Assembly (NCBI GenBank): GCA_015478645.1
Contig: JADMIL010000004.1
Location: 34,555 to 98,554 of the forward strand
DNA from: Candidatus Binataceae bacterium
GTDB taxonomy: Bacteria > Desulfobacterota > Binatia > Binatales > Binataceae
Direction of reading: 5' to 3'
Length of the DNA: 64,000 nucleotides
Each line of letters opens with the position of its first letter. The stretch's first letter is position 1. Position numbers and translations under genes: made by a program. The notes under the pieces were generated by a model that was given only the letters and a program-made list of their open reading frames with translations, was not told the DNA's origin and did no database searches. Of the stretch, positions 1-19,348 are shown in pieces.

Positions 1-226
1 CGCGCGGGCGGCGATGCGATCGATTAAGACTGACGCGGGATTACCCTTTGGCGCCCTGACCAGTCCGCGCGATGTATACCTGGTCGTTCCGCCCGCGCTG
101 GAAGAAGTCGCAGCGCAATTGCTGCATTCGGATTTCATGGCGGGCGCGGGAGCGAGCGCGAGCGTGCCGACCGGGAATATCTGGAAAAATACCGCGACAC
201 TGGTCGTGAGCGAATACCTGTCGTAA
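1..226 (+). CDS. Mu-like major capsid protein gpT, C-terminal fragment (5' end outside window)
   Basis: MRSIKTDAG..LVVPPALEEVAAQLL..N.WK....LVVSEYLS parallels the C-terminus of Mu gpT as recalled (MRSFEGDGG..IVVPVGLEKAAEQLL..NEMKGKLQLVVADYL). Confidence 0.85.
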   Translation, partial: ARAAMRSIKTDAGLPFGALTSPRDVYLVVPPALEEVAAQLLHSDFMAGAGASASVPTGNIWKNTATLVVSEYLS

Positions 227-343
227 AAGAAGGACGCGCGTTCGCTCCCGCGTGCGGCACCTATCAGCCGCATCTCCGCGCTCGCTGCGCGCAAGCCGAC
301 CCAACAGGGCGGAACCAACAAGTCACAAGCGGCACCGAAGACG

Positions 344-802
344 ATGGCATACGCATTACCAAGCGACATGGCGGCGCGATACCCAAATCGGGATCTTGTT
401 CAACTGACTAATGAGGATCCCACACAGACAACGGTCAACGCCACGGTGCTGCAGCAGGCGCTCGATGATGCGTCGGCAGAGCTCGACGGGTATCTCGAAA
501 GCCGCTTCTCACTGCCACTGAACGACCCGCCGGTGGTGCTGAACCGGCTGGCCTGCGATATCGCGATGTACCGGCTACAGGCGCTGCGTCCGCTGCACGA
601 CCTGGCGGACGCGCGCAAGCGATACGAAGACGCGGTCGAGCTGCTGGTGCGGGTGACGCGCGGCGAAGTGACACTGGGCCTCGCCGCGGACAATCTGGAA
701 CCGCCGTTGGCGCAGAGCGCGGTGGTGACACAAGCGGGAGGCGATCCGAGCGGCGTGCTACCGGCGCGGGTTTTCGATCGGGGTACGCTGAAGAGCTTCT
801 GA
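344..802 (+). CDS. Mu gp36-like head-tail adaptor (DUF1320)
   Basis: MAYA...DM..RY....LVQLT, DGYL..R..LPL, RLACDIAMYRL, RYEDA..LL..V..G.V.LGL motifs. Confidence 0.88.
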   Translation: MAYALPSDMAARYPNRDLVQLTNEDPTQTTVNATVLQQALDDASAELDGYLESRFSLPLNDPPVVLNRLACDIAMYRLQALRPLHDLADARKRYEDAVELLVRVTRGEVTLGLAADNLEPPLAQSAVVTQAGGDPSGVLPARVFDRGTLKSF

Positions 803-848
803 CTATTATAGACGTGCCAGCATCCTGGTCGGGTAAAGGAGAATAGTA

Positions 849-1121
849 ATGCGTGTGACTTTCATCTGCGTGCGAGCCGAACGGCGCAACGAATGGCATC
901 CTGGTTATCTGGCGCATTCCGCGCGGCTGGTGCCGGTAGTCGATGGAGCACCGCCAGCGCGCGAATACTTTGTCGAGCCGCCAGTGGGCGTGATCGAACT
1001 GAGCGGCCTCGCGGCCGAACATTTCACGGTTGGGCGGACGTACGTGGTGCACTTCGACGAAGTAGGGCTTGACGAAAGCCGCGCTTCCCGCCGCAATGGT
1101 CCGCCGGCCGGGCGCGAGTAG
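849..1121 (+). CDS. Hypothetical protein (90 aa)
   Basis: Good RBS (AAGGAG) upstream; fills the gap between gp36 and gp37. Confidence 0.6.
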   Translation: MRVTFICVRAERRNEWHPGYLAHSARLVPVVDGAPPAREYFVEPPVGVIELSGLAAEHFTVGRTYVVHFDEVGLDESRASRRNGPPAGRE

Positions 1122-1130
1122 GAGGTATCG

Positions 1131-1970
1131 ATGGGCGCCGTAATCCTGGACAGTCCGTGGGCAGGGCAGAGCTACTCGCCGCCGACACCACTGGATATAC
1201 GGACGATCGAGTCCGCGATCGTCGCCCAGTTGATCGCGCAGATCAATGGCATCGAAGTCGCGCATTTTCCGGACAAGCCGGAGTCATACCGAATGATGCA
1301 TCGCGTCGGAGCGGCGCTTGTCCGCTACGACGGGGCGGAATACGGCCGGCTGATCGATACTGCGGCGGTGGTGCAGGAGCGCACTTTGAGATTCGAGATC
1401 ACGCTGATGATGCGCGACCTGGGCTGGAACTATGGCGGCGCGCCGGACGGTCCGAGTCCGGGAGCTTACGCTATGATCGAGAACGTGCGCGCAGCGCTGA
1501 CCGGGTACCGCGTTCCGGGATGCGCCAAGTGTTATCCGGTGCGCGAACGCTTCGTCGAACGGGATAAGCAAGGCGGCGCGTGGATATACGCGATCGTCTT
1601 CGCACTAAAGACGGCGGCGGTTGAAGCGTCGAGCACGGATAATTATCCGACCCTGGTGCTGGCGACTACTCAGGAACAGGGGGGCGTGACGAGCGTGAGC
1701 GTTAACGCGGCGGTCTATACGTTCAACTCGTCGGGAGCGATCCAACTGCCCAACGGGAATGTAACGGCCGTTGCATTGAGCAATATCACAAGCGGCGCAC
1801 CATACGCGTTGGGAACCGACTACACAGTCGACTCCGTCAACGGGGTACTCGACCAAGTTGCTAGCGGAACGCTTCCGCCGGGCGCAACGATCAACGTCGC
1901 ATACAGCTACGCCGAGATCGTCACAGCAAGCGCCGGTGGCAGGAGTGCTCCGTTGGCACCGCGAAACTGA
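1131..1970 (+). CDS. Mu gp37-like tail terminator/neck protein with an extra C-terminal beta-sandwich domain
   Basis: IE.AIV..L....VAHFPDKP..Y...HRVGAALVRY.G..Y, Q.R.L.FEIT...RDL, R.ALTGY, W.Y...F; RBS GGAGG; C-terminal GTDY..D..NG domain. Confidence 0.8.
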   Translation: MGAVILDSPWAGQSYSPPTPLDIRTIESAIVAQLIAQINGIEVAHFPDKPESYRMMHRVGAALVRYDGAEYGRLIDTAAVVQERTLRFEITLMMRDLGWNYGGAPDGPSPGAYAMIENVRAALTGYRVPGCAKCYPVRERFVERDKQGGAWIYAIVFALKTAAVEASSTDNYPTLVLATTQEQGGVTSVSVNAAVYTFNSSGAIQLPNGNVTAVALSNITSGAPYALGTDYTVDSVNGVLDQVASGTLPPGATINVAYSYAEIVTASAGGRSAPLAPRN

Positions 1971-2184
1971 TTACTCGGACGAAGGTGTGACGCAGTATCG
2001 TCGACGCTGACTGCACTCAGCGCACCGCACAATAGACAGAAGCTTGGCGGGAAGACGCTCATAACCGCACAGTTTAACACTCGAGTAAATGAGTAAAGTC
2101 ACCGCTAGCACCGGCGTCAACATCTATATGCATCGTCACGCGCAACAGACCACCGTTCCGCGGTGCGAATCAGAGGTAAACTAA

Positions 2185-3930
2185 ATGCCCGCATCGTTTT
2201 TGCATGGTGTCGAAGTAATCGAGGTCACGAGCGGTCCGGCACCGATAACCGTGGTCAAGTCGTCAGTCGTCGGTCTGATAGGCAGCGCGCCCCTGTGGTC
2301 TTCGAACGCCCCACCGTCGGTGAACTCGCCAACGCTGGTGAGTTCCGCGCAGCAGGGAGCAGTCTATGGTCCGGCGGTGCAGGGCTACACGATTCCATAT
2401 GCGCTCAACGCTATCCTTGCACAGGGAGCCGGCCAGGTGATCGTGGTCAACGTATTTGACCCGACGAGCCACTTCAGCGATATCGTCGCGTCACAAACGT
2501 TCAGCGCGGCCGGCGCGATCAATTTGGGCCACATGGGCATCTCCAATCTTTCGGTGTTGCCGACTAACACGACCGCGGTGAGCGCGGAATCACATACCTT
2601 TGGCGGAACGCCGGCAACGATCGAGCTTGCGCACGGAAATGTGCAAGCTTCGTCGATGGTAGTGACGAGTAATCCGGCGGGAACGACATACGTCCAGGGT
2701 ACTGACTATTTGGCTGACGCGCGTACGGGACTTATTACCCGGCTTTCGAGCGGAGCGCTAACGGCAACACAAGCCGTCCTCGTCGGCTACAGTTACTATT
2801 CCGGAACGCCGTATAGTGCCAGCACCGCGTACGCCGCCGACCTGGTCAACGGTGTAGTAACGTTGGTGGCGGGAGGAGCGATCGCGGCCGGAGCAACGGT
2901 AATCGCGTCATTCAGCTACGCGGACCCGAGCAAGGTTCAAGACTCGGACATTATCGGCACGGTCGGCTCCGGTGGCTATACGGGTTTGCAGGCGCTGCTG
3001 ACGACGTACGGCACAATGGGCTTTTTCGCGAAACTGTTGATCGCGCCAGGATACTCACAGAACGGGGACGTCGCGACGGCAATGCTGGCGACGGCGGCCA
3101 GTATACGGGCGATGGCACTGCTCGACGCTCCGCCGGGAACCGCGGCGGCGGCGGTGATCGCAAATCGGGGCGTCGCGGGCAATGCGTTCGACACGAGTTC
3201 GACCCGGGCGATCCTGTGTTATCCGCAGGAGACGTTTTACGATATTGGATTGGTGCCCACCGGAGTGACCTTGAACGGAACGACGCCGGTTCGGCTGGCC
3301 GCAAATCAAAACTCGATAGCACCCTATTCTCAGTGGGTAGCGGGGGCGATGGCCGCAAAGGACCTGTCCAAGGGCTATTGGTGGTCGCCATCGAACACCA
3401 TGGTGAATGGGATTCTTGGTCCGGATGTTACGCTCTATGCATCGATCCTCGATGCGTCATCGGATGTGAACAATCTCAATGCGGCGGGAATTGTGACAGC
3501 CTTCAACGCTTTCGGCACCGGCCTCAGAGTGTGGGGCAACCGGACGGCCGGTTTTCCGGACGTGACGACACCCGATAACTTTATCAGCGTGCGCCGGACC
3601 ATGGATGTAATTGAGGAATCGGTGGAGCTGTCGATGCTGCAGTTTATCGACCAGCCTATTAGCAATGCACTGATTACCGCGATCCTGGCAAGCGCAAACG
3701 CGTTTATACGAACGCTTATTCAACGCGGCGCACTGGTCGCGGGATCGGCCAGCTACAATCCAGCGGAGAATCCGGCCAACCAGATTACAGCAGGCCAGTT
3801 GGTATTCGATATTGATGTGATGCCGCCGCCGCCGGCAGAGCGACTGACCTTCAACGTCTATATCGACTCGACTTTGCTCAGCCAGCTAGGAACAGCGAGT
3901 GCGTTGACCAGTACGACGCTCAACGCATAA
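2185..3930 (+). CDS. Contractile tail sheath protein (P2 FI-like)
   Basis: FLHGVEVIEV..G..PI..V.S.V.GLIG, LIAPG, GYWWSPSN, G.RVWGNRT, FISVRRT.D.IEES, PPPPAERLTF. Confidence 0.95.
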   Translation: MPASFLHGVEVIEVTSGPAPITVVKSSVVGLIGSAPLWSSNAPPSVNSPTLVSSAQQGAVYGPAVQGYTIPYALNAILAQGAGQVIVVNVFDPTSHFSDIVASQTFSAAGAINLGHMGISNLSVLPTNTTAVSAESHTFGGTPATIELAHGNVQASSMVVTSNPAGTTYVQGTDYLADARTGLITRLSSGALTATQAVLVGYSYYSGTPYSASTAYAADLVNGVVTLVAGGAIAAGATVIASFSYADPSKVQDSDIIGTVGSGGYTGLQALLTTYGTMGFFAKLLIAPGYSQNGDVATAMLATAASIRAMALLDAPPGTAAAAVIANRGVAGNAFDTSSTRAILCYPQETFYDIGLVPTGVTLNGTTPVRLAANQNSIAPYSQWVAGAMAAKDLSKGYWWSPSNTMVNGILGPDVTLYASILDASSDVNNLNAAGIVTAFNAFGTGLRVWGNRTAGFPDVTTPDNFISVRRTMDVIEESVELSMLQFIDQPISNALITAILASANAFIRTLIQRGALVAGSASYNPAENPANQITAGQLVFDIDVMPPPPAERLTFNVYIDSTLLSQLGTASALTSTTLNA

Positions 3931-3996
3931 TCGAACAGAGACTAACGGCGGACGCAGAACCAGCCGTGTCCGCATGAAAGCGGCAAGGATGATGCG

Positions 3997-4515
3997 ATGG
4001 ACATTTCGGTAAATCGTATAACGAATGCGAATATTTATATGGACGGCGCGGGTTTGCTTGGAAGGGCTGAAGAAGTCGAGGTGGCACAGCCGCGCCATCG
4101 CATGGTCGACCATAAGGGCCTGGGGATGGCAGGGACGGCCGAATTCTGGGCGGGGGTCGACAAGCTCGAAGCCAAGATCAAGTGGGCATCGCTGTATCCG
4201 GAAGCGTTAACGGCGGCGGCCAGTCCCTTTACGTCGCATTCGTTCCAGGTTCGCGGCAGCCTCGAGCAATACACCAGCCAGGGAAGGAGCGCCGAGCTGC
4301 CAGTGGTCTATTTGATGACGGCGGTATTCAAGGATGCGGGCGCCTTTCGCTTCCGGCAGCACGAGAACGTGGATTCCACGTCCAGCCTTACGGTCTACCA
4401 TTCGGAGCTCTACGTAGCGGGAACGCAAATCCATTTGTACGATGTACTCGCCAATATATACGTGGTGAACGGTGTCGATCAGCTAGCCGTATTTCGTGCG
4501 AACCTCGGCGGATGA
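3997..4515 (+). CDS. Major tail tube protein (P2 FII-like)
   Basis: NANIY.DG...LG.AEEV, GLGM.G......G.DKLEA, ...YDV..NIY.VNGVD.LA..R.NLG; follows the sheath. Confidence 0.92.
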   Translation: MDISVNRITNANIYMDGAGLLGRAEEVEVAQPRHRMVDHKGLGMAGTAEFWAGVDKLEAKIKWASLYPEALTAAASPFTSHSFQVRGSLEQYTSQGRSAELPVVYLMTAVFKDAGAFRFRQHENVDSTSSLTVYHSELYVAGTQIHLYDVLANIYVVNGVDQLAVFRANLGG

Positions 4516-4604
4516 TTATTTTGCGCTCAACTTTAAGCAGAATTAACTAGCGAGTAAGGCATTCGGAATTATAGTTATAGCCGCGGGGCGCGAGAGCAGA
4601 TGAT

Positions 4605-4676
4605 GCGGCGGCGGAAACACGTGTTTTCAGTTCATCCGGTGCGACGGTTCGAAGCGATAGGCATTTCCGCCGCCGC
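4605..4676. repeat. 13-bp perfect inverted repeat in the tube-chaperone spacer (possible RNA stem)
   Basis: GCGGCGGCGGAAA (4605-4617) / TTTCCGCCGCCGC (4664-4676). Confidence 0.6.
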
Positions 4677-4738
4677 GCGCATTTCGGCCCCGACGCCGGC
4701 GGGGCGCCGCAAGCAAAAAAGAAGAGGAGTTGCATTCG

Positions 4739-5068
4739 ATGGCCGATGAAGTGAAGGCGATTATGCTTCCATCTGGGAGAGCTGCGACAATACGCAAGGG
4801 AAAAGGGCGCGACCTGATGCGCGCGCATCGCGCAGTCGCAGGAAATCAGGAGCCTATGGCCGTCTCGTTCGCACTAGTGGCCGAATTGGCCCAAGTGGAA
4901 GGAAGACCGATCGTTTACGAGGACGTGTTGGCGATGGACCTGGAGGACGTGCTTGTGCTCGAAGCTGAAGTAATGGGGGCGGCTGAGGGCGAACCAAATT
5001 TTACCGTGAGGCCGGAGGACCGCACCGAAGAATCGAACTACCTGGAGCGGCCGCGGTCGTCAGATTAA
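4739..5068 (+). CDS. Tail assembly chaperone (gpE/gp41-like), 0-frame product
   Basis: Position after the tube; LPSG..ATIR...GRDL..A, ..EDV..MDLED motif; RBS GAGGAG 9 nt before ATG 4739. Confidence 0.85.
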   Translation: MADEVKAIMLPSGRAATIRKGKGRDLMRAHRAVAGNQEPMAVSFALVAELAQVEGRPIVYEDVLAMDLEDVLVLEAEVMGAAEGEPNFTVRPEDRTEESNYLERPRSSD

Positions 5069-5184
5069 TCGGATTTGGTTTCGCACTGACGGAGCTGGAT
5101 TCCATGACGCTGGAGGAACTCGAGTACTGGGCGCGAACCACCGCCGAATACTTACTGGCTAACGAACACGGGCACCAAGGATGA
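4996..5184 (+). CDS. -1 frameshift extension of the tail chaperone (gpE+E'-like)
   Basis: In-frame slippery heptamer A AAT TTT at 4996-5002; the -1 frame is open to TGA 5182-5184 and encodes ..GFALTELDSMTLEELEYWARTT.., a gpE'-like motif. Confidence 0.8.
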   Translation, partial: KFYREAGGPHRRIELPGAAAVVRLIGFGFALTELDSMTLEELEYWARTTAEYLLANEHGHQG

Positions 5185-5224
5185 TGAGCGGACGACGATC
5201 ATGAATGCGCGAGGAAGCGAGGGT

Positions 5225-5521
5225 ATGAGTAAGCGGTTATACGCAGGCAACTTGCATTTTGACTTAACCGACACGGCGCTCCAGCAGGTATTTGGGCACG
5301 TCGGCGGAGTTGAGAAGGCAGAGGTAATTAAGGACCGGGCGACCGGCCTGTCGCGCGGTTTCGGCTTCGTCGAAATGATGACGATCGAAGATGGCGAAGC
5401 GGCGATCGCGGAACTGGATGGTGCCGACGTAATGGGGCGGGTATTACGGGTGGCGCCGGCCAAGCCGCACGAGCCCCCGCGGCGTGGGCGATCAGCCGCG
5501 TACGAAACAGGAATAGAATGA
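5225..5521 (+). CDS. RNA-binding protein, single RRM domain
   Basis: RNP2 LYAGNL, RNP1 RGFGFVEM, AI.ELDG....GR.LRV..A; stop overlaps next start (ATGA). Confidence 0.93.
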   Translation: MSKRLYAGNLHFDLTDTALQQVFGHVGGVEKAEVIKDRATGLSRGFGFVEMMTIEDGEAAIAELDGADVMGRVLRVAPAKPHEPPRRGRSAAYETGIE

Positions 5522-6792
5522 AGTCGCGGGCCGACATGGTGCATGCGTCACGCTTTGCAGATCACGTCGTCGTGCGGTCGGCGACGATAGCGGGGCGTAT
5601 CGGCGGACTAGCGGAGTCCACTCGCAAATTGTCGCTTGAATCGACCGAGACCGCACACGGGATCCTCGCGGCTGCGCGCAGGAGCCGCAGGGTGCCAATC
5701 GGCCGGTCGAGTAATCCCTCGAGCAGCGATAGTTTGATCAGCCGCGTCGAGGACATCCCGACTTGGCGCCAGGCGCCAGCGCGCATTCGCGATCTTGAAT
5801 CGAATGTAAATAGCCTTATCAGTGCCGCGGGACTAGCCACAGTCACCGAACGAGTCGGTTCCGTGATAGGCGATATCGTGACTCATACGACCCGAGCGTC
5901 GCTGGCGATGCCGTCATGGTTATCGATTAATAAGATGGAAAGAGCGTCTCGCAGGTCATTGAATGCCCAGTCGACCGAACCTCAACAACGCAATCGATTA
6001 AACAATACTTTCGTCGACACCCGCAGCAGCTCCGCCGCAATCCATACTAACTACCTCGGCTTGAGCGCACCTGACGTTATGTCGCCCGCAGGACCCGCAC
6101 GGGATCAGCCCGCGGTGTATCCGTCGTCGTCAGGGTTCGATCCGAAGCGTCCAAATGGATATAACGCTCCCCGCTGGGGCGAGATGGGCTTTATACCTCT
6201 GACGGCAGCGAATACCCAAGGAGTTGCGCGCCACCGCAGTTTTTCGACGCATCGGAATCGGCTTACTACCCTAGAAGCAGACGCCCGCAATAGAGGCCTT
6301 GTGCGCGCCGCGCAACGCTCTGCAAGCGACGCTTTCGACACTACCTACACGAGATCAAAGACGTCACCCGCAGCGAATGTCGAGAACGCTGCGCGTCACG
6401 CTGCGCGACTTGGCTCGGCTGTTTACGCAAAAGGCGGTGCGCCGCACGGAAATGGAGTCTCTTCAGACCGCGAATGGAGAAGCAATCGGCTGCGAAGGAA
6501 CCGCGTTGAGGCTTGGGACCTCGATAATCGGTTTGCACGAGATTACCGAAGGCCGAACGAATATTCGAGCGGCGGCGCGAATGACTATCTGAAGGGAAGA
6601 GAACGCAGCGCGTCGGGATACCGTGGCGAGAGCGTTCCGCTAATCGTGAACTACTCGCCCACGGTGACGCTGTTTGACGCCCCGCCTGGGGAGATGGAGC
6701 GACGGTTGGTTGAAGCAATCGGCCGCCATGGCAGCGACCTGGTGCGCGTGCTGAACCGAGAGATGGAAAAGCGGCGACGCGCGGGATTCTAG
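5518..6792 (+). CDS. Atypical short protein in the tape-measure position
   Basis: Between chaperone and gpU; C-terminus (IVNYSPTVTL..D.....L......L..VL..EME.RRR..F) resembles TMP C-termini; the rest is R/S/A-rich and low complexity. Confidence 0.6.
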   Translation: MKSRADMVHASRFADHVVVRSATIAGRIGGLAESTRKLSLESTETAHGILAAARRSRRVPIGRSSNPSSSDSLISRVEDIPTWRQAPARIRDLESNVNSLISAAGLATVTERVGSVIGDIVTHTTRASLAMPSWLSINKMERASRRSLNAQSTEPQQRNRLNNTFVDTRSSSAAIHTNYLGLSAPDVMSPAGPARDQPAVYPSSSGFDPKRPNGYNAPRWGEMGFIPLTAANTQGVARHRSFSTHRNRLTTLEADARNRGLVRAAQRSASDAFDTTYTRSKTSPAANVENAARHAARLGSAVYAKGGAPHGNGVSSDREWRSNRLRRNRVEAWDLDNRFARDYRRPNEYSSGGANDYLKGRERSASGYRGESVPLIVNYSPTVTLFDAPPGEMERRLVEAIGRHGSDLVRVLNREMEKRRRAGF

Positions 6793-6861
6793 CGGGCGGA
6801 CCTCGTAACACGGCCACCGGCCAAGTTAAGGCATACTTCGAGGCCATAACTAAAGGATTGA

Positions 6862-7515
6862 ATGATGTTCGCGGTACTCGGCGAAATAGTCTTTGAAGTT
6901 CTAAGCTCACCCGAAAAGCTGGAATACACGCGCGACTGGGATTACGCGGAACTTCGTGTGATCGAGGATCGTCCGCGGCTTCAGTGGATAGCGGATAACC
7001 TGGCGTTGATCACGATCGATTTGCGCTTTCACGCCAGCTTTACCGTGCCCGAACTACAACTGGCCGCACTGATTGCGGCGGGTGACGATCACATTGCACG
7101 CCCGCTGGTGTTCGGAAACGGAATTCATCGCGGTTACTTTGTCGTGACTTCACTTCGAACGATTGCGACGCAGATGACGGCGGCCGGCGACCTTGCGGGA
7201 ATTACCGTGCGGACGACGCTTAAGGAATGGGCACTGAGTATTGAAATAGATCCGGGGGCGCCGCCCATCGCTCTGTTCCCCCTGCTTGGCGTGGTAGCGG
7301 CTCCGGCGGGAACTTCGACCGCATTGGTGTCATACCCCGGAGCAGGTGGAGTCGCTGAGACGCTCAGCGCATTGATCCCGGTTTACGCATCACCGGCAAT
7401 TCCCGCTCCAGGAGTCTCACCGATCCTCGACAACCCGGCCGCGACCGGCGCGGGATCGCCGCATCTGGTAGCCAATGATGTACCGCCGGGCACAATAGTG
7501 CGGGCGCCAAGATGA
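6862..7515 (+). CDS. P2 gpU-like tail tube initiator with Pro/Ala-rich extension
   Basis: MFA.LG.I.F, YAE...I..RPRLQW....L..I.I...FH..F..P, PLVFGNG...G.FV. Confidence 0.85.
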   Translation: MMFAVLGEIVFEVLSSPEKLEYTRDWDYAELRVIEDRPRLQWIADNLALITIDLRFHASFTVPELQLAALIAAGDDHIARPLVFGNGIHRGYFVVTSLRTIATQMTAAGDLAGITVRTTLKEWALSIEIDPGAPPIALFPLLGVVAAPAGTSTALVSYPGAGGVAETLSALIPVYASPAIPAPGVSPILDNPAATGAGSPHLVANDVPPGTIVRAPR

Positions 7516-7585
7516 ATCGCCTCGCTCGGTTAGCAGGTTTTCCGACTGACAGTCATACTCTGCAAGTACTGAAGAAGACAACTCA

Positions 7586-7813
7586 ATGGTCCAAGCACAA
7601 TTCCTGACACACGTAACAATCCGGGGCGAGCGCTGGGATTCGCTTGCCTGGAAATACTACGGCGACGCCACCCTGTTTTCACCGATCGTGATGGCTAATC
7701 CGCAAATCGCGGTCGAACCGGTCTTCGAGGCAGGCCTGGTGATTGGTGTTCCGATATTACAGGTGAGCCAGGCGACCACCAGCGACCTGCCTCCGTGGAA
7801 ACGAACTTCATGA
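7586..7813 (+). CDS. Tail protein X (LysM-like)
   Basis: T..GERWD.LAWKYYGD......I..ANP.......F.AG..I.VP....LPPWK. Confidence 0.9.
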   Translation: MVQAQFLTHVTIRGERWDSLAWKYYGDATLFSPIVMANPQIAVEPVFEAGLVIGVPILQVSQATTSDLPPWKRTS

Positions 7814-8109
7814 TGAAGCGGCTGCGGAACTTGTGCGTGCGGTTTTTTCCAACGCGGCCGTTATGCGCGAAATGCGTGTCCGGACGCATGTCGCATCCGG
7901 TGTATTGTAAGGGCGAAGCGTGTGCTCATCGTCGGCAGAGAACCGTGTATTCATTACACGAGCATTTATACCTTCAATGCAGTAGATGTGGATACGTAGT
8001 CTGGTACCCGTGCGCTGATCATCGAGACATTGATCGGCATAAACGCAAGCGGTGTGCCGCTTCGCCGCTACTGCTAATAATCCGGCAGCGCTGTAAGGAT
8101 GCCCACTAG
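7810..8109 (+). CDS. Small Cys/His-rich putative zinc-binding protein
   Basis: ATGA overlap with the gpX stop; stop abuts gpD ATG; CxxC, CxxxxC, HxH, CxxC, C. Confidence 0.55.
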   Translation: MMKRLRNLCVRFFPTRPLCAKCVSGRMSHPVYCKGEACAHRRQRTVYSLHEHLYLQCSRCGYVVWYPCADHRDIDRHKRKRCAASPLLLIIRQRCKDAH

Positions 8110-9129
8110 ATGAGCGGCGCGAGTTTTTTTGCGGTGCGATCTCCGAGTTGGGTATTAACCTACCTTGGGGTCAACATCACGGCCGACATTTCTTCGATGG
8201 TCCTGTCGATCATCTATACGGACGCGCTGCAGGGCGAATCCGGACGCCTAGAAATTGAGATCGAGGATCATGACAAGCGCTGGCAGGGCCCCTGGTACCC
8301 GACTGAGGGAGATGCTGTCAATTTACTAATCGGCTATGCGGGCGAACCTATGCTGCCTTGCGGAGACTTTCAGGTCGATGAACTCGGGCTGGGCGGGATA
8401 TCATCGGGGCCGCCGGACGTGTTCCACTTGCGCTGTCTGGCCGCGTATATTACGCCGGCGATGCGCACACTCAATAGCGCGGGATATGAAAATCAGACAC
8501 TGCTTCAGATCGCGGGAACGATTGCAGGAAAATATGGATACAGCGTTGTCGGCGCGCCGGATGCGCTAAACCTATCGTTTGCACGGGTTACGCAGCGACA
8601 AGAGACCGACGTGGCGTTTCTCAATCGGCTTGCGCAAACGCACAATTACAATTTTACAATACGTGGTAGTCAACTCGTCTTCTATTCGCGCGCGACTCTC
8701 GAGGCCGCGGCACCGGTTGCGACAATCACGCGCAGCGACATAGTCACTTTCAACTTCACGAACAAGACGCATCGAGTTTACATGGGGGCGCAAGTCTCAT
8801 ACCAGGATCCAGCGACCAAGCAGTTGCTGACACAGCGATCAGTCGCCGCACCGACGACGCCCACCGGCGATACTCTAAAGCTTGCACGGCGTTGCGAAAA
8901 CCAGCAGCAGGCACTCCTTAAAGCGCAAAGCGCGCTGCATCGCGCCAACATGAAGCGCGCGACGGCTCAGCTCACAACAATTGGTGCGACGATTTACGTG
9001 GCAGGCAACAACGTCAATGTCGCGGGTTTTGGCGTCAATGACGGCGTCTACTTGATCGAAACGGCGCGTCATCGATTGACGCGGGCGACAGGCTATACGA
9101 CGGAACTAGAAGCGCGGCGCGTCGATTGA
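8110..9129 (+). CDS. Baseplate hub protein (P2 gpD/Mu gpP-like)
   Basis: IT.DIS..V.SI.YTD...G.S..LEI...D....W...WYP..GD, G.F.VDE, Q..ETD..FL.RLA, GYTT..E. Confidence 0.9.
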   Translation: MSGASFFAVRSPSWVLTYLGVNITADISSMVLSIIYTDALQGESGRLEIEIEDHDKRWQGPWYPTEGDAVNLLIGYAGEPMLPCGDFQVDELGLGGISSGPPDVFHLRCLAAYITPAMRTLNSAGYENQTLLQIAGTIAGKYGYSVVGAPDALNLSFARVTQRQETDVAFLNRLAQTHNYNFTIRGSQLVFYSRATLEAAAPVATITRSDIVTFNFTNKTHRVYMGAQVSYQDPATKQLLTQRSVAAPTTPTGDTLKLARRCENQQQALLKAQSALHRANMKRATAQLTTIGATIYVAGNNVNVAGFGVNDGVYLIETARHRLTRATGYTTELEARRVD

Positions 9130-9292
9130 TGGATCGGGGCGGCCATGGCAGTGGGGTAATATCATGATCACGCCCAGGCAGCAGGCATGGACCGTCGCGG
9201 ATGATCCGTCTGCACGGTTAAGCGCACACATCGGTACGGCACCTTTGCACACAACGATCTCCGCAACCCGACGCGGCTGACGAGAGGCCCCT

Positions 9293-9820
9293 GTGTTTCG
9301 AGTTGGCATAGTAAAGAGTCTGGATGCGACGAATGCCCGGGTGCGGGTGGTGTTTCCCGATCGCGATCAGATGCAGAGCTGGTGGCTCCCGGTAGTTTTT
9401 GCGAAGACGCAAAACGATAAAGAGTACTGGCTGCCGGATGTGGGCGAGCAAGTGGTCTGTGTAATGGATGAATACGACGAAGACGGCGCTGTGCTCGGAG
9501 CGATTTATTCGAGTGTGGATCGGCCGCCGGTGGCAAGCGCCGACAAGTTGCACTGGTCGGCAAAAGACGGGGCGGTATTCGAATACGATCGGGCGGCTCA
9601 CGCGTTCGCAGTGAGTATTCCCACAGGCGGAACGATAACAATAAGCGCGAACGGCGCGAATATCGCGATCGACGGCTCGGGCGACGTGTTAATCGCGGCC
9701 GCCGGAGAGATCACTCTCGCCGGCGGGGGGCCCGCTGTTGCACGCGTCGGAGATATAACGACTTGTCCCGCGGGTTCGGGACAGATAGTCAGTGGCAGCG
9801 CAAAGGTAAATGCCGGATGA
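9293..9820 (+). CDS. Baseplate central spike (gpV-like) with a C-terminal PAAR-like motif
   Basis: R.GIV..D....RVRV.FPD......S.WLPV, YWLPDVGEQV.C..D, G.VLGAIYS, DG...EYDR; ends ARVGD...C....G.I.SGS..V.AG. Confidence 0.9.
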   Translation: MFRVGIVKSLDATNARVRVVFPDRDQMQSWWLPVVFAKTQNDKEYWLPDVGEQVVCVMDEYDEDGAVLGAIYSSVDRPPVASADKLHWSAKDGAVFEYDRAAHAFAVSIPTGGTITISANGANIAIDGSGDVLIAAAGEITLAGGGPAVARVGDITTCPAGSGQIVSGSAKVNAG

Positions 9821-9925
9821 ACCCTCGACCGCTTTTTTCGCAGGGTTGGCGAACTTGCCAAAACGCAAGAGATGATCGTCGCGATGATCACGGTGTCAAC
9901 GATGTGTAAGGCGGGTAAATAGGCG

Positions 9926-10369
9926 ATGAGTGTCGGCGCAATCACCCTGGCGGACATCACGTCTGCCGACTGGTCGTTGGCCCTTGATCAATCCGGAATG
10001 CCGGGTACAGGGCTGGGCAACGTGGTCCAAGGTGTGGCGGACGTTAACCAATGTATCCGAATCATTCTGACGACTCCGCGCGGCAGCGACCCGCTGCGGC
10101 CGACGTTTGGAGCGGACATCTGGCAATACGTAGACTATCCAGTCAACTCGGCGATACCCGCGATTGTACGCGAGGTAACCCAGGCGATAGCACTCTGGGA
10201 ACCGCGGGTCACACTGCTGTCGGTTAGAGCAACGCCAGCGCAGGATGATACCGCGCAGTCGGGTGCGCATCTGGATATTGCGATCACCTGGCAGCTCAAA
10301 TTGAGCACCAAGAACGGAAAAATAATGACCACGCCAAACAGTACGACGGTGACTATACCGACCGCTTGA
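9926..10369 (+). CDS. Baseplate wedge/sheath initiator gpW/gp25-like
   Basis: DV.QCI.IIL.TP.GSDPLRP.FG.D...Y.D.P, AI..WEPRV. Confidence 0.92.
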   Translation: MSVGAITLADITSADWSLALDQSGMPGTGLGNVVQGVADVNQCIRIILTTPRGSDPLRPTFGADIWQYVDYPVNSAIPAIVREVTQAIALWEPRVTLLSVRATPAQDDTAQSGAHLDIAITWQLKLSTKNGKIMTTPNSTTVTIPTA

Positions 10370-10432
10370 ACGGCCTGGAGTCAGGCTGAGTTCATCGGGA
10401 GACGCGCCGATGACGGAATGGAGTGAAAGCTG

Positions 10433-11602
10433 ATGGCTGGTGGTATTCCGCTGCTGCCGCCGCCGGTGTTCGTCGACGACGCCGACGGCCTGGACCCCAA
10501 CCTGATCCTCGCCGACATGGTGTCGGCCTTTCAGACCGCCGCAGGCCGTACATTACAGCCTGCACAGGTCGAGCGATTGCTGATCAATCTGTATGCGTAT
10601 CGTGAATCGCTGATACGCAACGCAATTCAATACGCGGGGCAGCAGAATCTGCTGGCCTATGCCGCATTCCCGATGCTCGACTACCTCGGCCAGCTACTGA
10701 GTATTATCCGGCTGGGCGCACAGGGAGCCACGACGACGCTCCAGTTTACATTGGCCAACCCGCTCAGTATCGCCTATGTGATTGCGGCCGGCACACAGGT
10801 CGGGACCATTGACGGTCAATTTGTTTTCGCCACAATCGAGAGCCTTACGATCCCGGCCGGCTCAATCTCAGGTTCCGTGCAGGCCACCAGCACCACGCCG
10901 GGGACGGGCGGTAATGGCTATCTGGCCGGGCAGGTGAACGTCCAGATTAGCCCGAGTGTATTGATCTCCGCGGTGACCAACTCCGACACCAGCGCGGGCG
11001 GCGCGTCGCCTGAAACCGATGAGCACTTGCGTGCCCGGATCCAGGCGGCGCCCAATCAGTTCAGCACGGCGGGTCCGGAAGGCGCCTACCGTTTTTTTAC
11101 GCTTAGCGCCGACCCGTCGATTATTGACGCGCAGGTCGTGACGCCGGCGCCGGGACAGGTGGTGGTTTACGTACTGACCGGTCCGATCACGATCCAGCCG
11201 GCGCCGTCGCCGAATCCGGCGGCGATCGCGAGTTCCGGGCTGCTGGCGAAAGTGGCCATTGCACTCAGCGGCGACAGCGTGCGGCCATTGACTGACACGG
11301 TGAGTGTAATGGCGGTGACCGAGACTGACTATCAAATCTCCGGCACGATCACCATCTACTCCGACGCCGATCCGGCGGCCACGATGGCGGCGGCGAACGC
11401 CGCTGCCCAAAGCTATGCGATCGCGTTGGCCTCGCGTATCCAGCGCGACATCGTGCCCAGCCAGATTATCGAGGCGCTGTCAGTTACAGGCGTTTATGAG
11501 GTGGTGCTGACTTCGCCAAGCTACACTCAACTGCAACCCGGGCAATGGGCTAATTGCATCGCGGTGACGCTCAGCCAGGCAACCAGCTCGCAATTGAGTT
11601 GA
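10433..11602 (+). CDS. Baseplate J-like protein
   Basis: GRTL.PAQVERLLI...AYRE, ETDE.LR.RI..AP..FS.AGP.GAY.F, VRPLTD.V.V. Confidence 0.93.
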   Translation: MAGGIPLLPPPVFVDDADGLDPNLILADMVSAFQTAAGRTLQPAQVERLLINLYAYRESLIRNAIQYAGQQNLLAYAAFPMLDYLGQLLSIIRLGAQGATTTLQFTLANPLSIAYVIAAGTQVGTIDGQFVFATIESLTIPAGSISGSVQATSTTPGTGGNGYLAGQVNVQISPSVLISAVTNSDTSAGGASPETDEHLRARIQAAPNQFSTAGPEGAYRFFTLSADPSIIDAQVVTPAPGQVVVYVLTGPITIQPAPSPNPAAIASSGLLAKVAIALSGDSVRPLTDTVSVMAVTETDYQISGTITIYSDADPAATMAAANAAAQSYAIALASRIQRDIVPSQIIEALSVTGVYEVVLTSPSYTQLQPGQWANCIAVTLSQATSSQLS

Positions 11603-11725
11603 TGAGAATAGGGCTTAGCGGGTGGCAAATAATACCTCGTTATTCGATTACCTAACAGGCATTATCGCCGTGGCTGACAAGGCGCACGACGAAGTGTTTC
11701 AACCCGACAACACGGTCGAGCAGAA

Positions 11726-12562
11726 ATGGCGCAACTGACTATCCAACCTTCGATCAACGATATGCGCAGCAACACGCTGCTCGATCTTATTGAGCGGATG
11801 GATGCGCTCGACCTGACGCCAATTCTAGTCTATCGGCTGAACTCCACTCCGGATAGCGCATTGCTGCTGCTGGCGTGGCAGTTCGACATGCTTGGACCGC
11901 AATGGCAATTGGGCGCGCAGTTGACGGAGTCGGTCGACGCGCTAACCGCGATCGATCCGCTGATTGACATCGACACACTTAATTCGATCAATAGCATCCT
12001 CGGTCCGTCGGATTACGATTCGCTGCGAGCGCTGCTCAAGGTGGCGATTCCGTTGCATCGTACGCGCGGTACGCCGTATGCGATCAAGACGGCGCTGGCG
12101 TCGCTCGGTTGGGGAAGCGTTACGCTGGAGGAGGGTCAGTCGTCGTGGGGCGGTACGCAGTATCCGAGCGACCAGGGGTGGGCGGTGTTCCGCGCGCTGA
12201 TCAATCTCGCCAGCGGGCAGAGCGTTGACAGCGGCGCCGCGACGCGGGCGATCGCCACAATCAATTTTTTCAAACCGGTACGCGCGTGGCTGGACTCGAT
12301 ATGGTTTATCGGGGCGCCGATCGCTGACGGCGCGCCGGCGCCAGCCGATTTTGTTCTGTCAATTTTTATGCAGGGCGATCCGGTGCCGGAACCGGGAGAT
12401 ATCATCAACGCGCCGGGCTGGCCACTTGCGGATCTGAAGACTATCGCACCCCTTTACAACGATCACTTTACGCATGTCGGAATTACTTACGGCGCTAATC
12501 AGCCAGCGGTTGCGGACTCTGGTGTAATCGTGAACGGCGCCGCGATCGCCGCGCGCGCGTAA
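11726..12562 (+). CDS. Tail protein I (P2 gpI-like baseplate wedge)
   Basis: L..LAWQF, R.L.K.AI.LHR..GTP.AIK.AL..LG, WA.FR, KP.R..L. Confidence 0.88.
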   Translation: MAQLTIQPSINDMRSNTLLDLIERMDALDLTPILVYRLNSTPDSALLLLAWQFDMLGPQWQLGAQLTESVDALTAIDPLIDIDTLNSINSILGPSDYDSLRALLKVAIPLHRTRGTPYAIKTALASLGWGSVTLEEGQSSWGGTQYPSDQGWAVFRALINLASGQSVDSGAATRAIATINFFKPVRAWLDSIWFIGAPIADGAPAPADFVLSIFMQGDPVPEPGDIINAPGWPLADLKTIAPLYNDHFTHVGITYGANQPAVADSGVIVNGAAIAARA

Positions 12563-12599
12563 CGACGGAGCGAACCGTCAAAGCCAACGAGAGGGACCA

Positions 12600-13244
12600 A
12601 TGCGACCATCAGGGATTGTGACGCTATACAAGGGCGGGCGCCTCGTCTGGACGGGGCACAACCTTTATGTGAACGCGGGGCTGCCGCCGCTGGCTAATCT
12701 GATCGCGGGCGTGACCACGGGACAGTACGTTGCCGCGATGGGCTTCGGTTCCGGTGCGACCGCGCCGGCGGCGACCGATACAGGTCTGACCGCCTCGCCG
12801 ACGTACTATAATGCGATCGGATCGCACAGCTTTCCTTCGTCGGGAAGTGTGCAATTCAATTACTCACTGCTGGCGACCGATTACGGCGCAGCGGGCCTGA
12901 CAATTCAGGAACTCGGGCTCTTTGCCAATGCCAGCGCGCTGGCGTTGCCCGCGGCTATCGGGACGGCCAATCCCGCGTGGAACGCTGCGACTGCGTACGT
13001 CGTCGGCAACCTGGTGACCGATAGCAACGGCAATCTCCAGCGCTGCACGACCCTTGGGACCAGCGGCGGCAGCGCCCCGACGTGGTCAAGTATCGTCGGC
13101 GGGAGCACCTCGGATGGCTCCGCGGCATGGACACTGGTGGCGCTGCATACCGCGCCGGGACCGATTCTGGCGCACGTCGCGGTGCCGGCCTTCGCATATA
13201 CCGGAACGGGAAACTATTCAGGGACATGGACGCTTACTTTCTAA
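12600..13244 (+). CDS. Tail collar/fibre-attachment protein with an inserted CBM5/12-like module
   Basis: NL.VN.G...LA.L..G, G.G.G..AP...DT.L, I.ELGLF; insert W.A.TAY.VG..V....G....C...GTSG...P.W......DG...W. Confidence 0.7.
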   Translation: MRPSGIVTLYKGGRLVWTGHNLYVNAGLPPLANLIAGVTTGQYVAAMGFGSGATAPAATDTGLTASPTYYNAIGSHSFPSSGSVQFNYSLLATDYGAAGLTIQELGLFANASALALPAAIGTANPAWNAATAYVVGNLVTDSNGNLQRCTTLGTSGGSAPTWSSIVGGSTSDGSAAWTLVALHTAPGPILAHVAVPAFAYTGTGNYSGTWTLTF

Positions 13245-13351
13245 TAGCCGCGGCTTCGTAATAAGCGCGCGGCTGCGCCGAATCGCGCGCGCATCCTATA
13301 CCCGCTTGGCCTGGGACGTAGCGCGCAGATGATTAAAAGGATAATCAGCTA

Positions 13352-13924
13352 ATGGCGACATTGATCGATAGTCCCGAATTCAGCGCAAACGAGATTTACC
13401 AGATCCAACAGACCGATCCGGTCGAAGGGGCGGCCACTGGAGCGAGCTTCAATGGCGCCGGAGTCAGCAACCAGCCGCATCAGCAACTCGCCAACCGCAC
13501 CGCGCTGCTCAAACAGCGGCAGGATACGAATATCGCGAATATCGGTGTGCTGCAGGACTTCATGGCTGGGTTCATCGGTTCATTACAGACTAACGGCTAC
13601 CTGCAGATACCGATTGTGGACGTCCTGCGAGGGCCGATTACAGCGATAATTCAGTGGGGCTATTACGCATTGCCGCAGGTAGCCATTGCGTTAGACACCG
13701 AGTACTCAGTGACCTGGCCGCTGCGGTTTCCAAACACAATCCTGATCCCGCCGCTGGCGACAAATGTGTATTTCCAGACCAGCGGCCGAAATACCGCGGC
13801 GTCGGTGGTGACTTATAGCGAGCGCGGCGCGACCTTCGTGCTGGACGTACCCAACAGCAGTTACGGATCGTTCGCAGGCAACGAGAAATCCAATGGATTT
13901 TCGTGGCTTGCGATCGGTTTCTAA
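13352..13924 (+). CDS. Short tail-fibre protein (fibre N-terminal anchor plus gp53-like domain)
   Basis: IYQI...DPVEG....G.SN....QLANRT..LK; NGY..., IIQWG, V.WP..FPN, ..W.AIGF end. Confidence 0.78.
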   Translation: MATLIDSPEFSANEIYQIQQTDPVEGAATGASFNGAGVSNQPHQQLANRTALLKQRQDTNIANIGVLQDFMAGFIGSLQTNGYLQIPIVDVLRGPITAIIQWGYYALPQVAIALDTEYSVTWPLRFPNTILIPPLATNVYFQTSGRNTAASVVTYSERGATFVLDVPNSSYGSFAGNEKSNGFSWLAIGF

Positions 13925-14012
13925 GCGCGCTTAGCGGGTCGAATGGTGCAGATGCTCCACGGCGGCGAGGGACATCCAGCTGATCGCCCGCCGAGCAGGA
14001 CATGTAAAAATA

Positions 14013-17000
14013 ATGATGAGATTTCCATCGATGATACGAACTATACGAAGCGCGGGGGCGGGGCGGAAGCGGCTTGCGACCCTGATTTTTGCGGGCTTGA
14101 TTACGGCCGCCGCAGTCGCAATCGCGCAGGCGCAGTACCGGCCGATTCCGAACTACATTGGAATCGGCGCCGGGCAGGAATTCCGCAACGACATCAATAA
14201 TCATCTTTCCGGCGTTACACCGATAGCGCCGCGGATAGTGAGTATTCCGTTCGCGCAATTGCCAGCGGAGCAGGACGGCCAGGAGTATTGGGTGCCCAAT
14301 GCCACGCAGGCTAATCCTTGCACCGCCGGCGGATCAGGGGCGCTCGCGGTCGGGATACGGGGCCAGTGGAATTGCCTGTCCGGCGCGTCGGGCACGGCGC
14401 TCGGCGGCTTTCCGCTGACGGCGAACGTCAGTGCGGCGAGCCATAGTATCCAGAACTTGGCGGTGAATACGGCGACCGGTGATGCGCTCTCGCAGGGACA
14501 GTCGCACCTCAATGAGCTGGCACCGGCGCAGAACGTCTACAGCATGGGCAACAACAGGCTGCAATGGGTGCGCGGGGGCGCGCAGGCTCTCGACGCATTG
14601 AGCTATGGACAATCGGGCGCGCAACTCAACGGGCTGGATCTCAATAACAATCAGTTGGCTAATCTTTCGGCGGCGTCGGCCAGCGGACAGGCCTTGGCTT
14701 ACGCGCAGAATGGCGCGCAATTGACGACGAATCAGGCGGCGGGGGCGCTGGTCTCGTCGAGCCAGAACAACGCGAACGCCACGTCGGTGGCGATCAATGC
14801 ACCGGCGGGGATCGTCGCCGGGAATGCGCTGGTGGCCAATATCTTCTGGGTCTCGCCGACTGGCACGTTCACGCCGCCGGCCGGATGGACGCAGATTCGC
14901 GCGGATGCGACCAGTGTGAGCTATGGCTTGACGGCTGGGGTGTTCTGCAAGGTCGCGACGGGCAGCGAGCCAGCGAATTACACGTTCGGCTTTTCGGTCG
15001 CGCAGAACGTGGTCGGATCGATCAGCCAGATCAGCGGGATCACTTGTGCGACTGACGGAAGTTCCGTGAGTGCGGGCGGCGCGAATAGTATTACCGCGCC
15101 GGCGTTCGCCACGACGCATAGCAGCGACTACGTGGTTGCGCAGGGGTCGTCGTACAACCCGGCTTCTTTTACCGCTTCGATCGGCGGTCGGCTGATTTCC
15201 GACGGGAACGCCAACGGCGATCTGTTGGTCACCGGACGTATCAATCCGGGCGTAAACGTCCCGGCGGTTGTCTATTCGGGGACGTTGGCGAACGTCTCGC
15301 TGGCCTCGCAAGTCGCCTTTGTCACTGCGACGACGATTCAATCGCTCCCGGTGCTGAGCGGGCAGATCGGCGCGTCGATTCAATCGCTGACCGCAAGCAA
15401 TAGCCAGGTGCTCAACGTGCAGGCGGCGCCGTACAATGCGCAGGCCGACGGCAACACCGACGACGGTCCAGCGATTCAGCAGGCGATTTACGACGCCGAA
15501 AGAGCGGTGCCGCCAACGTTTCCTAATCCGAATCTCTATCCGGGAGGCTTCGGGGCCGTCTATCTGCCACGTTCGGCGACGGGCAAATGCTACGACATCG
15601 GCAAGCCGATCCGGGTGGCGTCGGGGGCGATCGAGATCAAGGGCGACGACGGCACGTGTATCCAGAAGCTGTATGCCGGGCCGACGATTATCAACGAAGG
15701 CTGGGGCATCGACTTTCTCCAGTACGGTCCGGCGCTGGTCGGGACGGGGCAATCGCTGAGCACGGTTGGCTATTTAAGCAGTAATACTAAAAACGGTTTC
15801 ATCGATCTTGCGCAGTTGCTCGACACGACGCAGATCAATCTTGCGACTCGCTTTGCCAGCGGCTTCGATATTGAGTTCTGGATGGAGCAGACGACTACGT
15901 TGGGGGGCAACGTTTTTCGCTCGAATCCGAATAATCCTGGCGGCGGCAACGGGATGGTTTCGATCACCGCGTCCGGCGGCGCCGGAAATCCGGTCGCGGC
16001 CAGCGTGAACACCACAGGCGGATTAGTCAGTCTGGCCGCGTGTCCTTCGCAGACCCAAAACACCGCCTACGACATGGCGCTCGATTGGGACGGCACGACC
16101 TACCGGCTGTTTCAGGGCGGCGTGCTGTGCTCGAGTGTGGCGTCGGCGAATGCGCCGGTGCTTGGGCCATTTGAATCGATGCAGCTACCGGCGCTCGGCG
16201 GTTTTGACTATTGGATGGCGGGGGGCAATATAAGTAGCCCGTTTCAGGGCTATCTCGACTCGATGAGATTTGAATCGGTCTCGGAGCATGTCGCGAACTA
16301 CACGCCGCCGACCGCGCGCTTTGCGGCCGACGGCAACACGGTGCTGCTGCTCAACTGGGATGCGTCGCTCGATGGAACGCAACTCGGCTATACGCAGAAC
16401 GCGGCGCCGGTCTATTTGCCGGTGTTGGGCGGCGGGCAAAATACGATCGGCACGTCGATGCATCTGCATAATCTGGAGCTTTGCGCCGACGATGGCCAAA
16501 TGGCGCATCGCGGTGACGGCCTGTTCTCGCAGTGGGCGGTCGGTTCGGAAATCGACCACGTCAGTTGCTCGAATGCGGTCTATGCGGGGCTGAACTTCTA
16601 CAACAATGACTTCGGCACGATTGAGCATAACAACACGGTGCTGAGCGGGATGCTCGGAATCCTCCACGGCGTCGCGTGGAATGGCGCGCGCGCCTACGAC
16701 GATGCGATGGATTCTCAGTCAATTGCGTGTGAGGAGACGGTTGGCGACGGCGGTGGCGGCTTCCACGATAGTCATCAGCTATGCACGAATCGCGGCACGC
16801 TGCGCTATTGCAAGATGTACATGGGGGAGGCGTTCACCGGGCAGGTGGACTTTGAGAATTGCGATCAGGAGGCGGGCGATAGCAACTTCGTCGCGTCGGA
16901 CCTGCTGCAAAACCCCCTGATTTCGCTGCAGTTCAATTCGCCCGATTTTGTCGGCGTCAGCGGCCATCCGTTTATCGAGCAGGACGGCGGCGGGATGGGA

Positions 17001-17762: not shown

Positions 17763-17815
17763 GGGTGTGGGGTGCGCGGGCATGGGACGCGGGCAAGTCT
17801 GCGCAGCAGCGATTA

Positions 17816-17858
17816 ATAAAAAAGAGGACAGGCAAGTGGAACCTCTGAGAGGTTCCAC
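17816..17858 (-). terminator. Hairpin between convergent spike and GT-C genes, probable terminator
   Basis: GTGGAACCTC-TGA-GAGGTTCCAC (17836-17858) with an A-run upstream (U-run on the minus strand, offset from the stem). Confidence 0.5.
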
Positions 17859-17936
17859 ACCTCCCGCAATAATCAGATGCGGGTCTGCTGCGGCCCTCGT
17901 TAGAGACGATTGAATCGGGCGCAGCGGGCACGGGGT

Positions 17937-19319: not shown

Positions 19320-19348
19320 CGAGGAACCTTGCGGGGGACCACCGGGCG

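Follow-up and report, generated by a model that had tools for sequence, protein, structure and literature searches.

A conserved RRM gene in the contractile-tail operon of a family of Binatota prophages

An RRM gene inside a P2-type tail operon

The stretch of DNA considered here, henceforth the window, covers 64,000 nucleotides (G000:C34:34555-98554) of a metagenome-assembled genome (MAG) of the Binataceae, 3.06 Mb long in 98 contigs. Its first 17.8 kb, together with about 14 kb located upstream on the same contig, make a complete prophage, in which a gene for a small protein with an RNA recognition motif (RRM) is embedded within the operon that codes for the contractile tail. This gene occupies positions 5225..5521 of the forward strand (ATG at 5225, TGA at 5519-5521) and specifies 98 amino acids (aa), its product matching the Pfam RRM_1 profile PF00076 over positions 1-70 of 70 with an E-value of 1.9e-18 and 66.5 bits, for a cut-off of 20.7. 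The hallmark of the domain is the presence of an octamer, RNP1, and a hexamer, RNP2, with aromatic residues on strands beta3 and beta1; both can be read from the translation, as LYAGNL (RNP2, residues 5-10) and RGFGFVEM (RNP1, residues 44-51). An AlphaFold2 (AF2) model built with 40 sequences (predicted local distance difference test, pLDDT, 80.8) displays the beta-alpha-beta-beta-alpha-beta topology, with strands at residues 3-8, 29-36, 43-51 and 75-78 and helices at 16-26 and 54-64, followed by a disordered tail from about residue 80, and its best PDB matches with Foldseek are the RRMs of RBM39, Fox-1, HuR, TIA-1 and plant GR-RBP1 (target-normalised template modelling score about 0.9, root-mean-square deviation about 1 A). 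The gene product is a true single-domain RRM protein with intact RNP1 and RNP2, and its sequence leads us to infer that it binds single-stranded RNA. A second in-frame ATG lies upstream, at 5201; the start at 5225 is the likely one, because the first residue is methionine in 95% of 101 unique homologues, which begin with M-S/G-x-R-L-F/Y. The original prediction, made before any database search, had described a gene with canonical RNP1 and RNP2 at this place, starting 40 nt after the stop of a frameshift product (from TGA 5182-5184 to ATG 5225) and overlapping the start of the next gene by an ATGA (5518-5521), and all of this is borne out.

The protein resembles the bacterial single-RRM proteins (those of the NCBIfam model NF058537, Rbp_regulator, together with cyanobacterial Rbp and Bacteroides RRM-1) in that it is small and made of one RRM_1 domain of about 80 aa with canonical RNP1 and RNP2. 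According to two papers (PMC13370968, PMC12232666), such bacterial proteins act as RNA chaperones and regulate genes post-transcriptionally. The phage protein differs from the Rbp_regulator family, its best NCBIfam model, in several respects: it scores 85.6 bits, under the curated cut-off of 100, as do five other tail RRMs (80.9-90.9 bits), so that 6/6 tail copies tested are under it; it belongs to a separate clade; it is encoded inside a phage tail operon instead of being free-standing; and its C-terminal tail, PAKPHEPPRRGRSAAYETGIE, is neither glycine-rich nor RGG-like. Of 106 unique tail-module proteins, 101 are 90-98 aa long, and none has a glycine-rich tail.

The element is a whole phage, not a tailocin, and combines a Mu-type head with a P2-type contractile tail. 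Upstream of the window it carries genes for a Mor-type late activator, a GH108 endolysin, the terminase large subunit, a Mu-type portal, Mu protease I and the Mu gpT capsid protein; inside the window there follow, in this order, Mu gp36, gp37, sheath, tube, a gpE-like chaperone, the RRM gene, a gene of 424 codons, gpU, gpX, gpD, V, W, J, I and fibre genes. The closest related loci belong to Candidatus Binataceae and Binatia MAGs. The tail operon begins with the sheath gene (2185..3930, forward strand; Pfam Phage_sheath_1 and Phage_sheath_1C, phrog_23 E 6.8e-91), continues with a tube gene of the P2 FII type (3997..4515, forward; Pfam Phage_tube E 2.2e-37) and includes, beyond the RRM gene, a P2 gpU-like tail protein (6862..7515, forward; Pfam Phage_P2_GpU E 9.8e-21). 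This is the order of the P2 tail block, FI-FII-E/E+E'-T-U-D, where sheath and tube are followed by a chaperone with a -1 frameshift, a long gene, gpU and gpD. In P2, however, the start of gene T lies within the last part of E+E' and nothing stands between them, while here a 98-aa RRM gene is inserted; because E+E' and T overlap in P2, the insertion is a true departure from the reference layout.

The RRM gene lies on the same strand as the tail genes, tightly packed between its 40-nt upstream spacer and its ATGA overlap downstream. Promoter-like and terminator-like sites are at or below the numbers expected from shuffled sequences, and none frames the gene. A moron would be endowed with its own promoter and terminator, often with opposite orientation or odd composition; same-strand orientation, tight packing and the want of flanking signals speak against this status, and it was rejected.

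Conservation, loss and descent

In order that the presence of the gene should not bias the sample, related loci were chosen by their tail-tube protein alone, taking the best 80 of 134 relatives in a collection of species-representative genomes and the best 80 of 119 relatives in IMG/VR. The RRM gene stands at this very position in 67 of the 77 assessable genome loci (absent in 10) and in 49 of the 67 assessable IMG/VR loci (absent in 18), so that the outcome which, by the terms of the original prediction, would have refuted it (absence from this position in all related loci) is clearly excluded; these loci are related to one another, hence the counts are not independent samples. When the best 80 of 149 IMG/VR relatives retrieved with an RRM alignment are considered instead, 62 display the context tube-chaperone-E'-RRM-(long gene)-gpU and 18 are found elsewhere. 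Altogether, in all the 152 tail-context loci collected by the RRM or the tube searches, the gene is located between tube or chaperone on one side and the tape-measure-position gene, where there is one, or gpU on the other. A further search, with the 424-aa protein encoded downstream, gave a match in eight genomes among 60 relatives: six have an RRM open reading frame (ORF) at the same place (five with 64-70% identity, one with 32% and both RNP motifs lost), one (G028) has none, and the last cannot be judged, as its contig stops and an insertion sequence (IS) element interrupts the gene.

The loci deprived of the RRM gene are otherwise complete, with tube, chaperone and gpU present, and gpD too wherever the locus reaches it. 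Furthermore, decayed copies persist in place in two lineages, L018/L111 and L241, the latter being a remnant at the same spot in one of the 18 RRM-less IMG/VR loci, while the other tail genes are intact. The gene, lost several times and decayed in place in two lineages, is thus a conserved but dispensable accessory gene and not a core part of the tail; repeated loss and decay likewise contradict the idea of a required component of the tail module.

A tree had been proposed in which these proteins would be compared with the RRM paralogues of their hosts, and it has now been drawn. From 194 domains, 81 representatives at 90% identity were retained (44 from tail modules, 22 from hosts and 15 from other viral contexts), and the 44 tail-module RRMs make a single clade, separate from both host and other-viral RRMs, with a Shimodaira-Hasegawa-like approximate likelihood ratio test (SH-aLRT) support of 99. 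The two main subclades of tail RRMs mirror the two main clades of a tree of tube and gpD (66 loci), on which a clade of five loci and three single loci lack the RRM. One clade, mirrored subclades and scattered absences fit one early gain followed by several losses, the order being inferred since the tree is unrooted. A host donor was at hand, as RRM genes were found in 25/25 Binatia genomes searched, with one to six matches each. The host genome of the window itself holds three other RRM genes, all with glycine-rich tails, 36-42% identical to the phage copy and, with 106.5-109.6 bits, above the Rbp_regulator cut-off. The best explanation of these trees and sequences is that an ancestor of the prophage family would have taken the gene once from a host-type Rbp gene, which would have descended vertically since, inside the tail operon. 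The 18 IMG/VR RRMs found in other contexts group with host RRMs; the 11 of these loci that were examined have them in accessory regions, beside toxin-antitoxin genes, transposases, tail, lysis or head-connector genes, or in regions without family matches.

Where it is kept, the gene is under strong purifying selection, with constraint on the RNA-binding motifs. Over the same 62 loci, the median pairwise ratio of non-synonymous to synonymous substitution rates (dN/dS) is 0.09 for the RRM, as compared with 0.05 for the tube, 0.13 for gpX and 0.22 for both the chaperone and gpU. Among 101 unique tail RRMs, the positions of RNP1 (R-G-F-G-F-V-E-M) are each conserved at 89-100%, and those of RNP2 at 86-98% if F/Y and V/A/I are counted as equivalent at its positions 2 and 3; the aromatic residues are conserved as well, F46 at 97%, F48 at 100% and an F or Y at position 6 at 97%. 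Four residues, R20, E33, R/K36 and R75, are conserved specifically in this clade.

Among phages outside the family such proteins are rare. The RRM protein has no family match in PHROG, and a tblastn search of 50,697 phage records gave a match in three, none of them in a tail module; of the 11 fold matches in BFVD with E <=0.001, ten come from giant viruses of eukaryotes and one is without a name, none being named as phage. Our literature search turned up no publication that describes an RRM gene within the tail module of a phage.

Neighbouring genes in the tail module

The gene located upstream (4739..5068, forward strand) can be assigned, by its sequence, to the gpE/E+E' tail assembly chaperones. 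Its zero-frame product matches phrog_21320 (E 3.3e-20) and, with BLASTP, P2 gpE (E 0.006); the match to Pfam PF10109 is below threshold (E 0.0049, 17.3 bits for a cut-off of 25). A slippery heptamer, A_AAT_TTT, can be read in its zero frame at 4996..5002 as a putative -1 frameshift site, and translation in the -1 frame gives an E'-like extension of 62 open codons (4996..5184, forward) which ends at TGA 5182-5184, whence the 40-nt spacer that precedes the RRM start. The extension was found by tblastn in most related loci, with 31-59% identity, and 134 of 146 related loci, RRM-less ones included, have an A_AAT_TTY heptamer with, after it, a -1 ORF of 35 codons or more.

Two loci, L155 and L182, have their chaperone gene upstream of gp36 (in the regions L155:803-3133 and L182:2536-2925) and not after the tube, and yet the RRM gene is still found between tube and gpU. 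In another, L038 (= P0001), the zero frame of the chaperone continues into the RRM and a stop interrupts the E' frame, a weak observation which may reflect an error; a search for such fused forms among longer proteins gave four hits, this one being the only one from a phage. The spacer between tube and chaperone is atypical in the window, with 223 nt (4516-4738), while its median length is 47 nt in RRM-bearing relatives; part of it is AT-rich, and it also contains a GC hairpin (GCCCCG...CGGGGC) with an A-rich run after it.

The gene that follows (5518..6792, forward strand), whose start overlaps the RRM stop, occupies the position of the tape-measure gene. The original prediction had placed the RRM gene between chaperone and tape-measure genes: the chaperone stands, while the tape-measure label is a putative one, drawn from position. 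To position may be added a C-terminal motif in common with an acidic 414-aa protein that comes after the chaperone in L155 and weakly matches a tape-measure family (phrog_167, E 2.9e-4); the Atlas leads are weak (0.83). The 424-aa protein is rich in arginine (13.4%), serine and alanine, with a pI of 11.1 and a net charge of +24, and it has no match in Pfam, PHROG, NCBIfam or PDB. It departs from P2 gpT in length (424 vs 815 aa) and arginine content (13.4% vs 4.9%), and its C-terminus has no similarity to the last 150 aa of gpT or to any solved structure. Its AF2 model, of long helices and disorder, has a mean pLDDT of 48.9, too low for further use. In the family, proteins at this position range from 261 to 498 aa with a median pI of 11.5, and they evolve fast: between phages with 82-90% identical tubes they share 14-23% identity, the last 55 aa or so being the only conserved part. 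Should this protein set the length of the tail, that length would vary almost two-fold in a family where the tube is constant at 172 aa and the other tail proteins are closely related.

In 17 of the 77 assessable genome loci (gap of at most 113 nt) and in seven tube-selected IMG/VR loci, gpU comes directly after the RRM gene. The subclade without a gene between the two includes L126, L131, L133, L143 and L125. The five genomes of these loci were searched (L212-L216), and each encodes elsewhere a protein that carries the C-terminal motif of the tape-measure-position protein; where it was read whole (L212, L213 and L216) it is equally arginine-rich, with a pI of 11.6-11.8. In L213 and L216 its gene lies between a small-terminase-like gene and that of the terminase large subunit, which are adjacent in the prophage of the window, and in L214 and L215 the match adjoins the terminase large subunit; in 4/5 genomes the gene precedes that of the tube by 15-20 kb and has the same orientation. 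The tape-measure-position gene thus seems, from its conserved motif and composition, to have moved to the packaging module in one subclade. The association with this gene that had been stressed at the outset is therefore not obligatory, since the RRM stays when its neighbour sits beside the terminase. As it also stays when the chaperone sits elsewhere, in L155 and L182, its place is tied to neither gene. A link between the presence of the RRM and the charge of the tape-measure-like protein was considered and rejected, as the proteins of RRM-less loci are equally basic (pI 10.3-11.9).

Accessory genes seem to use the chaperone/tape-measure junction as an insertion site. In an RRM-less clade (L129:7122-8056 (-), L122:7357-7728 (-)), the 0.9-1.2 kb that separate the chaperone from a tape-measure-like gene contain antisense ORFs for small membrane proteins, with the motif WVTGAKD...RF..W. 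Apparently broken copies of the tape-measure-position gene exist in L136, L150, L151, L160 and L167, and in L017 (G004:C2, about 516000-520798) an ORF that reads like an IS transposase interrupts it near the end of the contig.

Further downstream, a 104-aa cysteine-rich ORF with CxxC pairs (7795-8109, forward strand), without a match in Pfam or PHROG, occupies the gap of about 300 nt between gpX and gpD, which is similar in some relatives and absent in others. Between gpD and the V/W baseplate genes, several relatives have pairs of ORFs with signal-peptide-like N-termini (L123:9604-11606, L155:8709-10646, L131:10003-11390, L182:9270-10825), absent from the window. The tail module ends with a 1249-aa protein (14013-17762, forward) with a weak pectate-lyase-like match (E 0.0037, below cut-off), which is probably a receptor-binding or depolymerase fibre.

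Possible roles of the RRM protein

Phages are known to encode small RNA-binding translational regulators beside their targets, such as Mu Com, for mom, and T4 RegA. The protein studied here would be comparable to them as a small RNA-binding protein made from the transcript that also carries its presumed target genes; their folds (a zinc finger, and the RegA fold) are unrelated to the RRM, so that we have here a functional analogy and not a membership. An RNA-directed role in the late, tail-gene phase may fairly be proposed, since the gene is inside the tail operon, has no extra promoter or terminator signal and is constrained in its RNA motifs; furthermore, the fact that it is conserved but repeatedly lost favours a conditional accessory role over a core structural one. 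The reading that we tentatively favour, with a probability of roughly 0.4, makes the protein an RNA chaperone or a regulator of translation, expressed late and directed at phage mRNA. It would be produced late in infection along with the tail proteins, and the face of its beta-sheet would bind single-stranded RNA, acting post-transcriptionally on the long, GC-rich late mRNA of the phage itself. It would thereby help set the output of the low-copy downstream genes, those for the tape-measure-like protein, gpU and the baseplate hub, and it would confer a conditional advantage while not being required for tail assembly.

Several observations weigh against this proposal. No RNA target came to light: Rfam gave no match with E <=1 over positions 1-20000 of the window, and the tube-chaperone spacer, short and variable in RRM-bearing relatives, holds no conserved element. 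The 60 nt that follow the slippery site are no more structured than shuffled sequences, with a median z of 0.05 for 96 RRM-bearing segments and of -0.44 for nine segments without a detected RRM. As the host has three RRM paralogues, the need for a phage copy is left unexplained. Finally, a fixed place in the tail module, kept through the rearrangement of neighbours in L155 and L182, would also suit a partner of tail proteins, and the clade-specific residues R20, E33, R/K36 and R75 could mark a protein-binding surface instead of RNA contacts.

As a copy of the host Rbp domain without its glycine-rich tail, the protein might instead be turned against the host, competing with host Rbps for their RNAs or sequestering RNA needed for defence, with an advantage limited to hosts that possess the matching system. 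We hold this to be possible though doubtful. Patchy retention, loss and decay in place, associated with strong constraint where the gene is kept, make the usual pattern of conditional accessory genes, and the junction where it stands also takes other accessory genes, namely the antisense ORFs of L122 and L129. The phage copies also differ from the host paralogues, which are glycine-tailed and above the Rbp_regulator cut-off, while the tail RRMs tested are below it and without such a tail. A late structural operon without a promoter-like signal above chance would, however, bring the protein late to block defence, unless it were packaged, and no defence genes were seen nearby, although no dedicated search for defence systems (PADLOC) was made.

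A role in tail assembly or in the virion is unlikely in our opinion. The RRM fold would then serve to attach the protein to another component of the tail (tube, gpU, chaperone or the arginine-rich tape-measure-like protein) or to nucleic acid in the particle, and the protein might be ejected with the DNA. Its constant position in the 152 tail-context loci, maintained when the chaperone gene (L155, L182) or the tape-measure-position gene (the relocated-gene clade) sits elsewhere, and the conserved charged residues specific to the clade, outside RNP1 and RNP2, would agree with such a partnership, as would the chaperone frame that runs into the RRM in L038. But the gene is absent from 10/77 and 18/67 loci where all the other tail genes are intact, and decayed copies sit in modules otherwise unharmed; the conserved features are RNA-binding motifs, and the L038 fusion, which accompanies a stop in the E' frame, may be an error.

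It is still less probable that the protein acts in trans on the -1 frameshift, bound a few bases past A_AAT_TTY as a roadblock that would set the ratio of E to E+E'. Protein-dependent frameshifting is known in cardioviruses and arteriviruses, and the RRM gene comes directly after the frameshift product. The best closed hairpins starting 3-9 nt after the heptamer (L114 being left out, as its contig ends before the RRM position) also show a suggestive trend: they are weak in RRM-bearing clade B (median -8.9 kcal/mol, n=73), intermediate in RRM-bearing clade A (median -18.2, n=23) and strong in RRM-less clade A (median -24.0, n=7), the L119 clade having a GC stem of 7 bp about 6 nt past the heptamer. 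About two loss events account for these seven RRM-less values, however, and the values overlap those of RRM-bearing relatives; the trend, confounded by phylogeny, is a lead and not a support. Control of the frameshift ratio, one of the roles envisaged in the original prediction, is further weakened by the fact that RRM-less phages use the same heptamer, by the absence of unusual structure downstream (the z-scores around 0 given above), by the lack of a sequence motif past the heptamer common to the family, and by L155 and L182, where the chaperone moved away and the RRM did not. To our knowledge, phage chaperone frameshifts generally need no trans factor.

A more radical proposal, to which we would give equally long odds, is that the RRM makes tail morphogenesis dependent on RNA. 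The protein would be either the first protein-dependent stimulator of -1 frameshifting in a phage, replacing the hairpin of RRM-less relatives, or a means to bring RNA into tail assembly beside the short, arginine-rich (pI about 11.5) and fast-evolving tape-measure-position protein. At the other extreme, that of a neutral passenger, a copy of a host gene landed in the operon and devoid of any phage role, is hardly credible: host genomes do contain many RRM genes and the gene is dispensable in some lineages, but a median dN/dS lower than that of chaperone and gpU, a near-invariant RNP1, a single old clade whose divergence keeps pace with that of the tail genes and a size kept within narrow limits disfavour it, the more so as purifying selection is not explained by overlapping coding, no overlapping gene being supported.

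Canonical RRM proteins are almost unrecorded in phages, and here is one that is kept in a contractile-tail operon in most loci of a family widespread in the Binatota, a phylum of soil and peat without any cultured member, and that is under tighter constraint than its neighbours, the chaperone and gpU genes. If, as in our preferred reading, it regulates late mRNA, or if it acts on frameshifting, the stoichiometry of the tail genes would be subject to an additional layer of control, exerted by a protein; were it directed against the host, we would have a phage take-over factor of a new kind, derived from a host RNA chaperone. The family itself offers natural controls, with lineages that have the gene, lineages that lack it and lineages in which a decayed copy remains.

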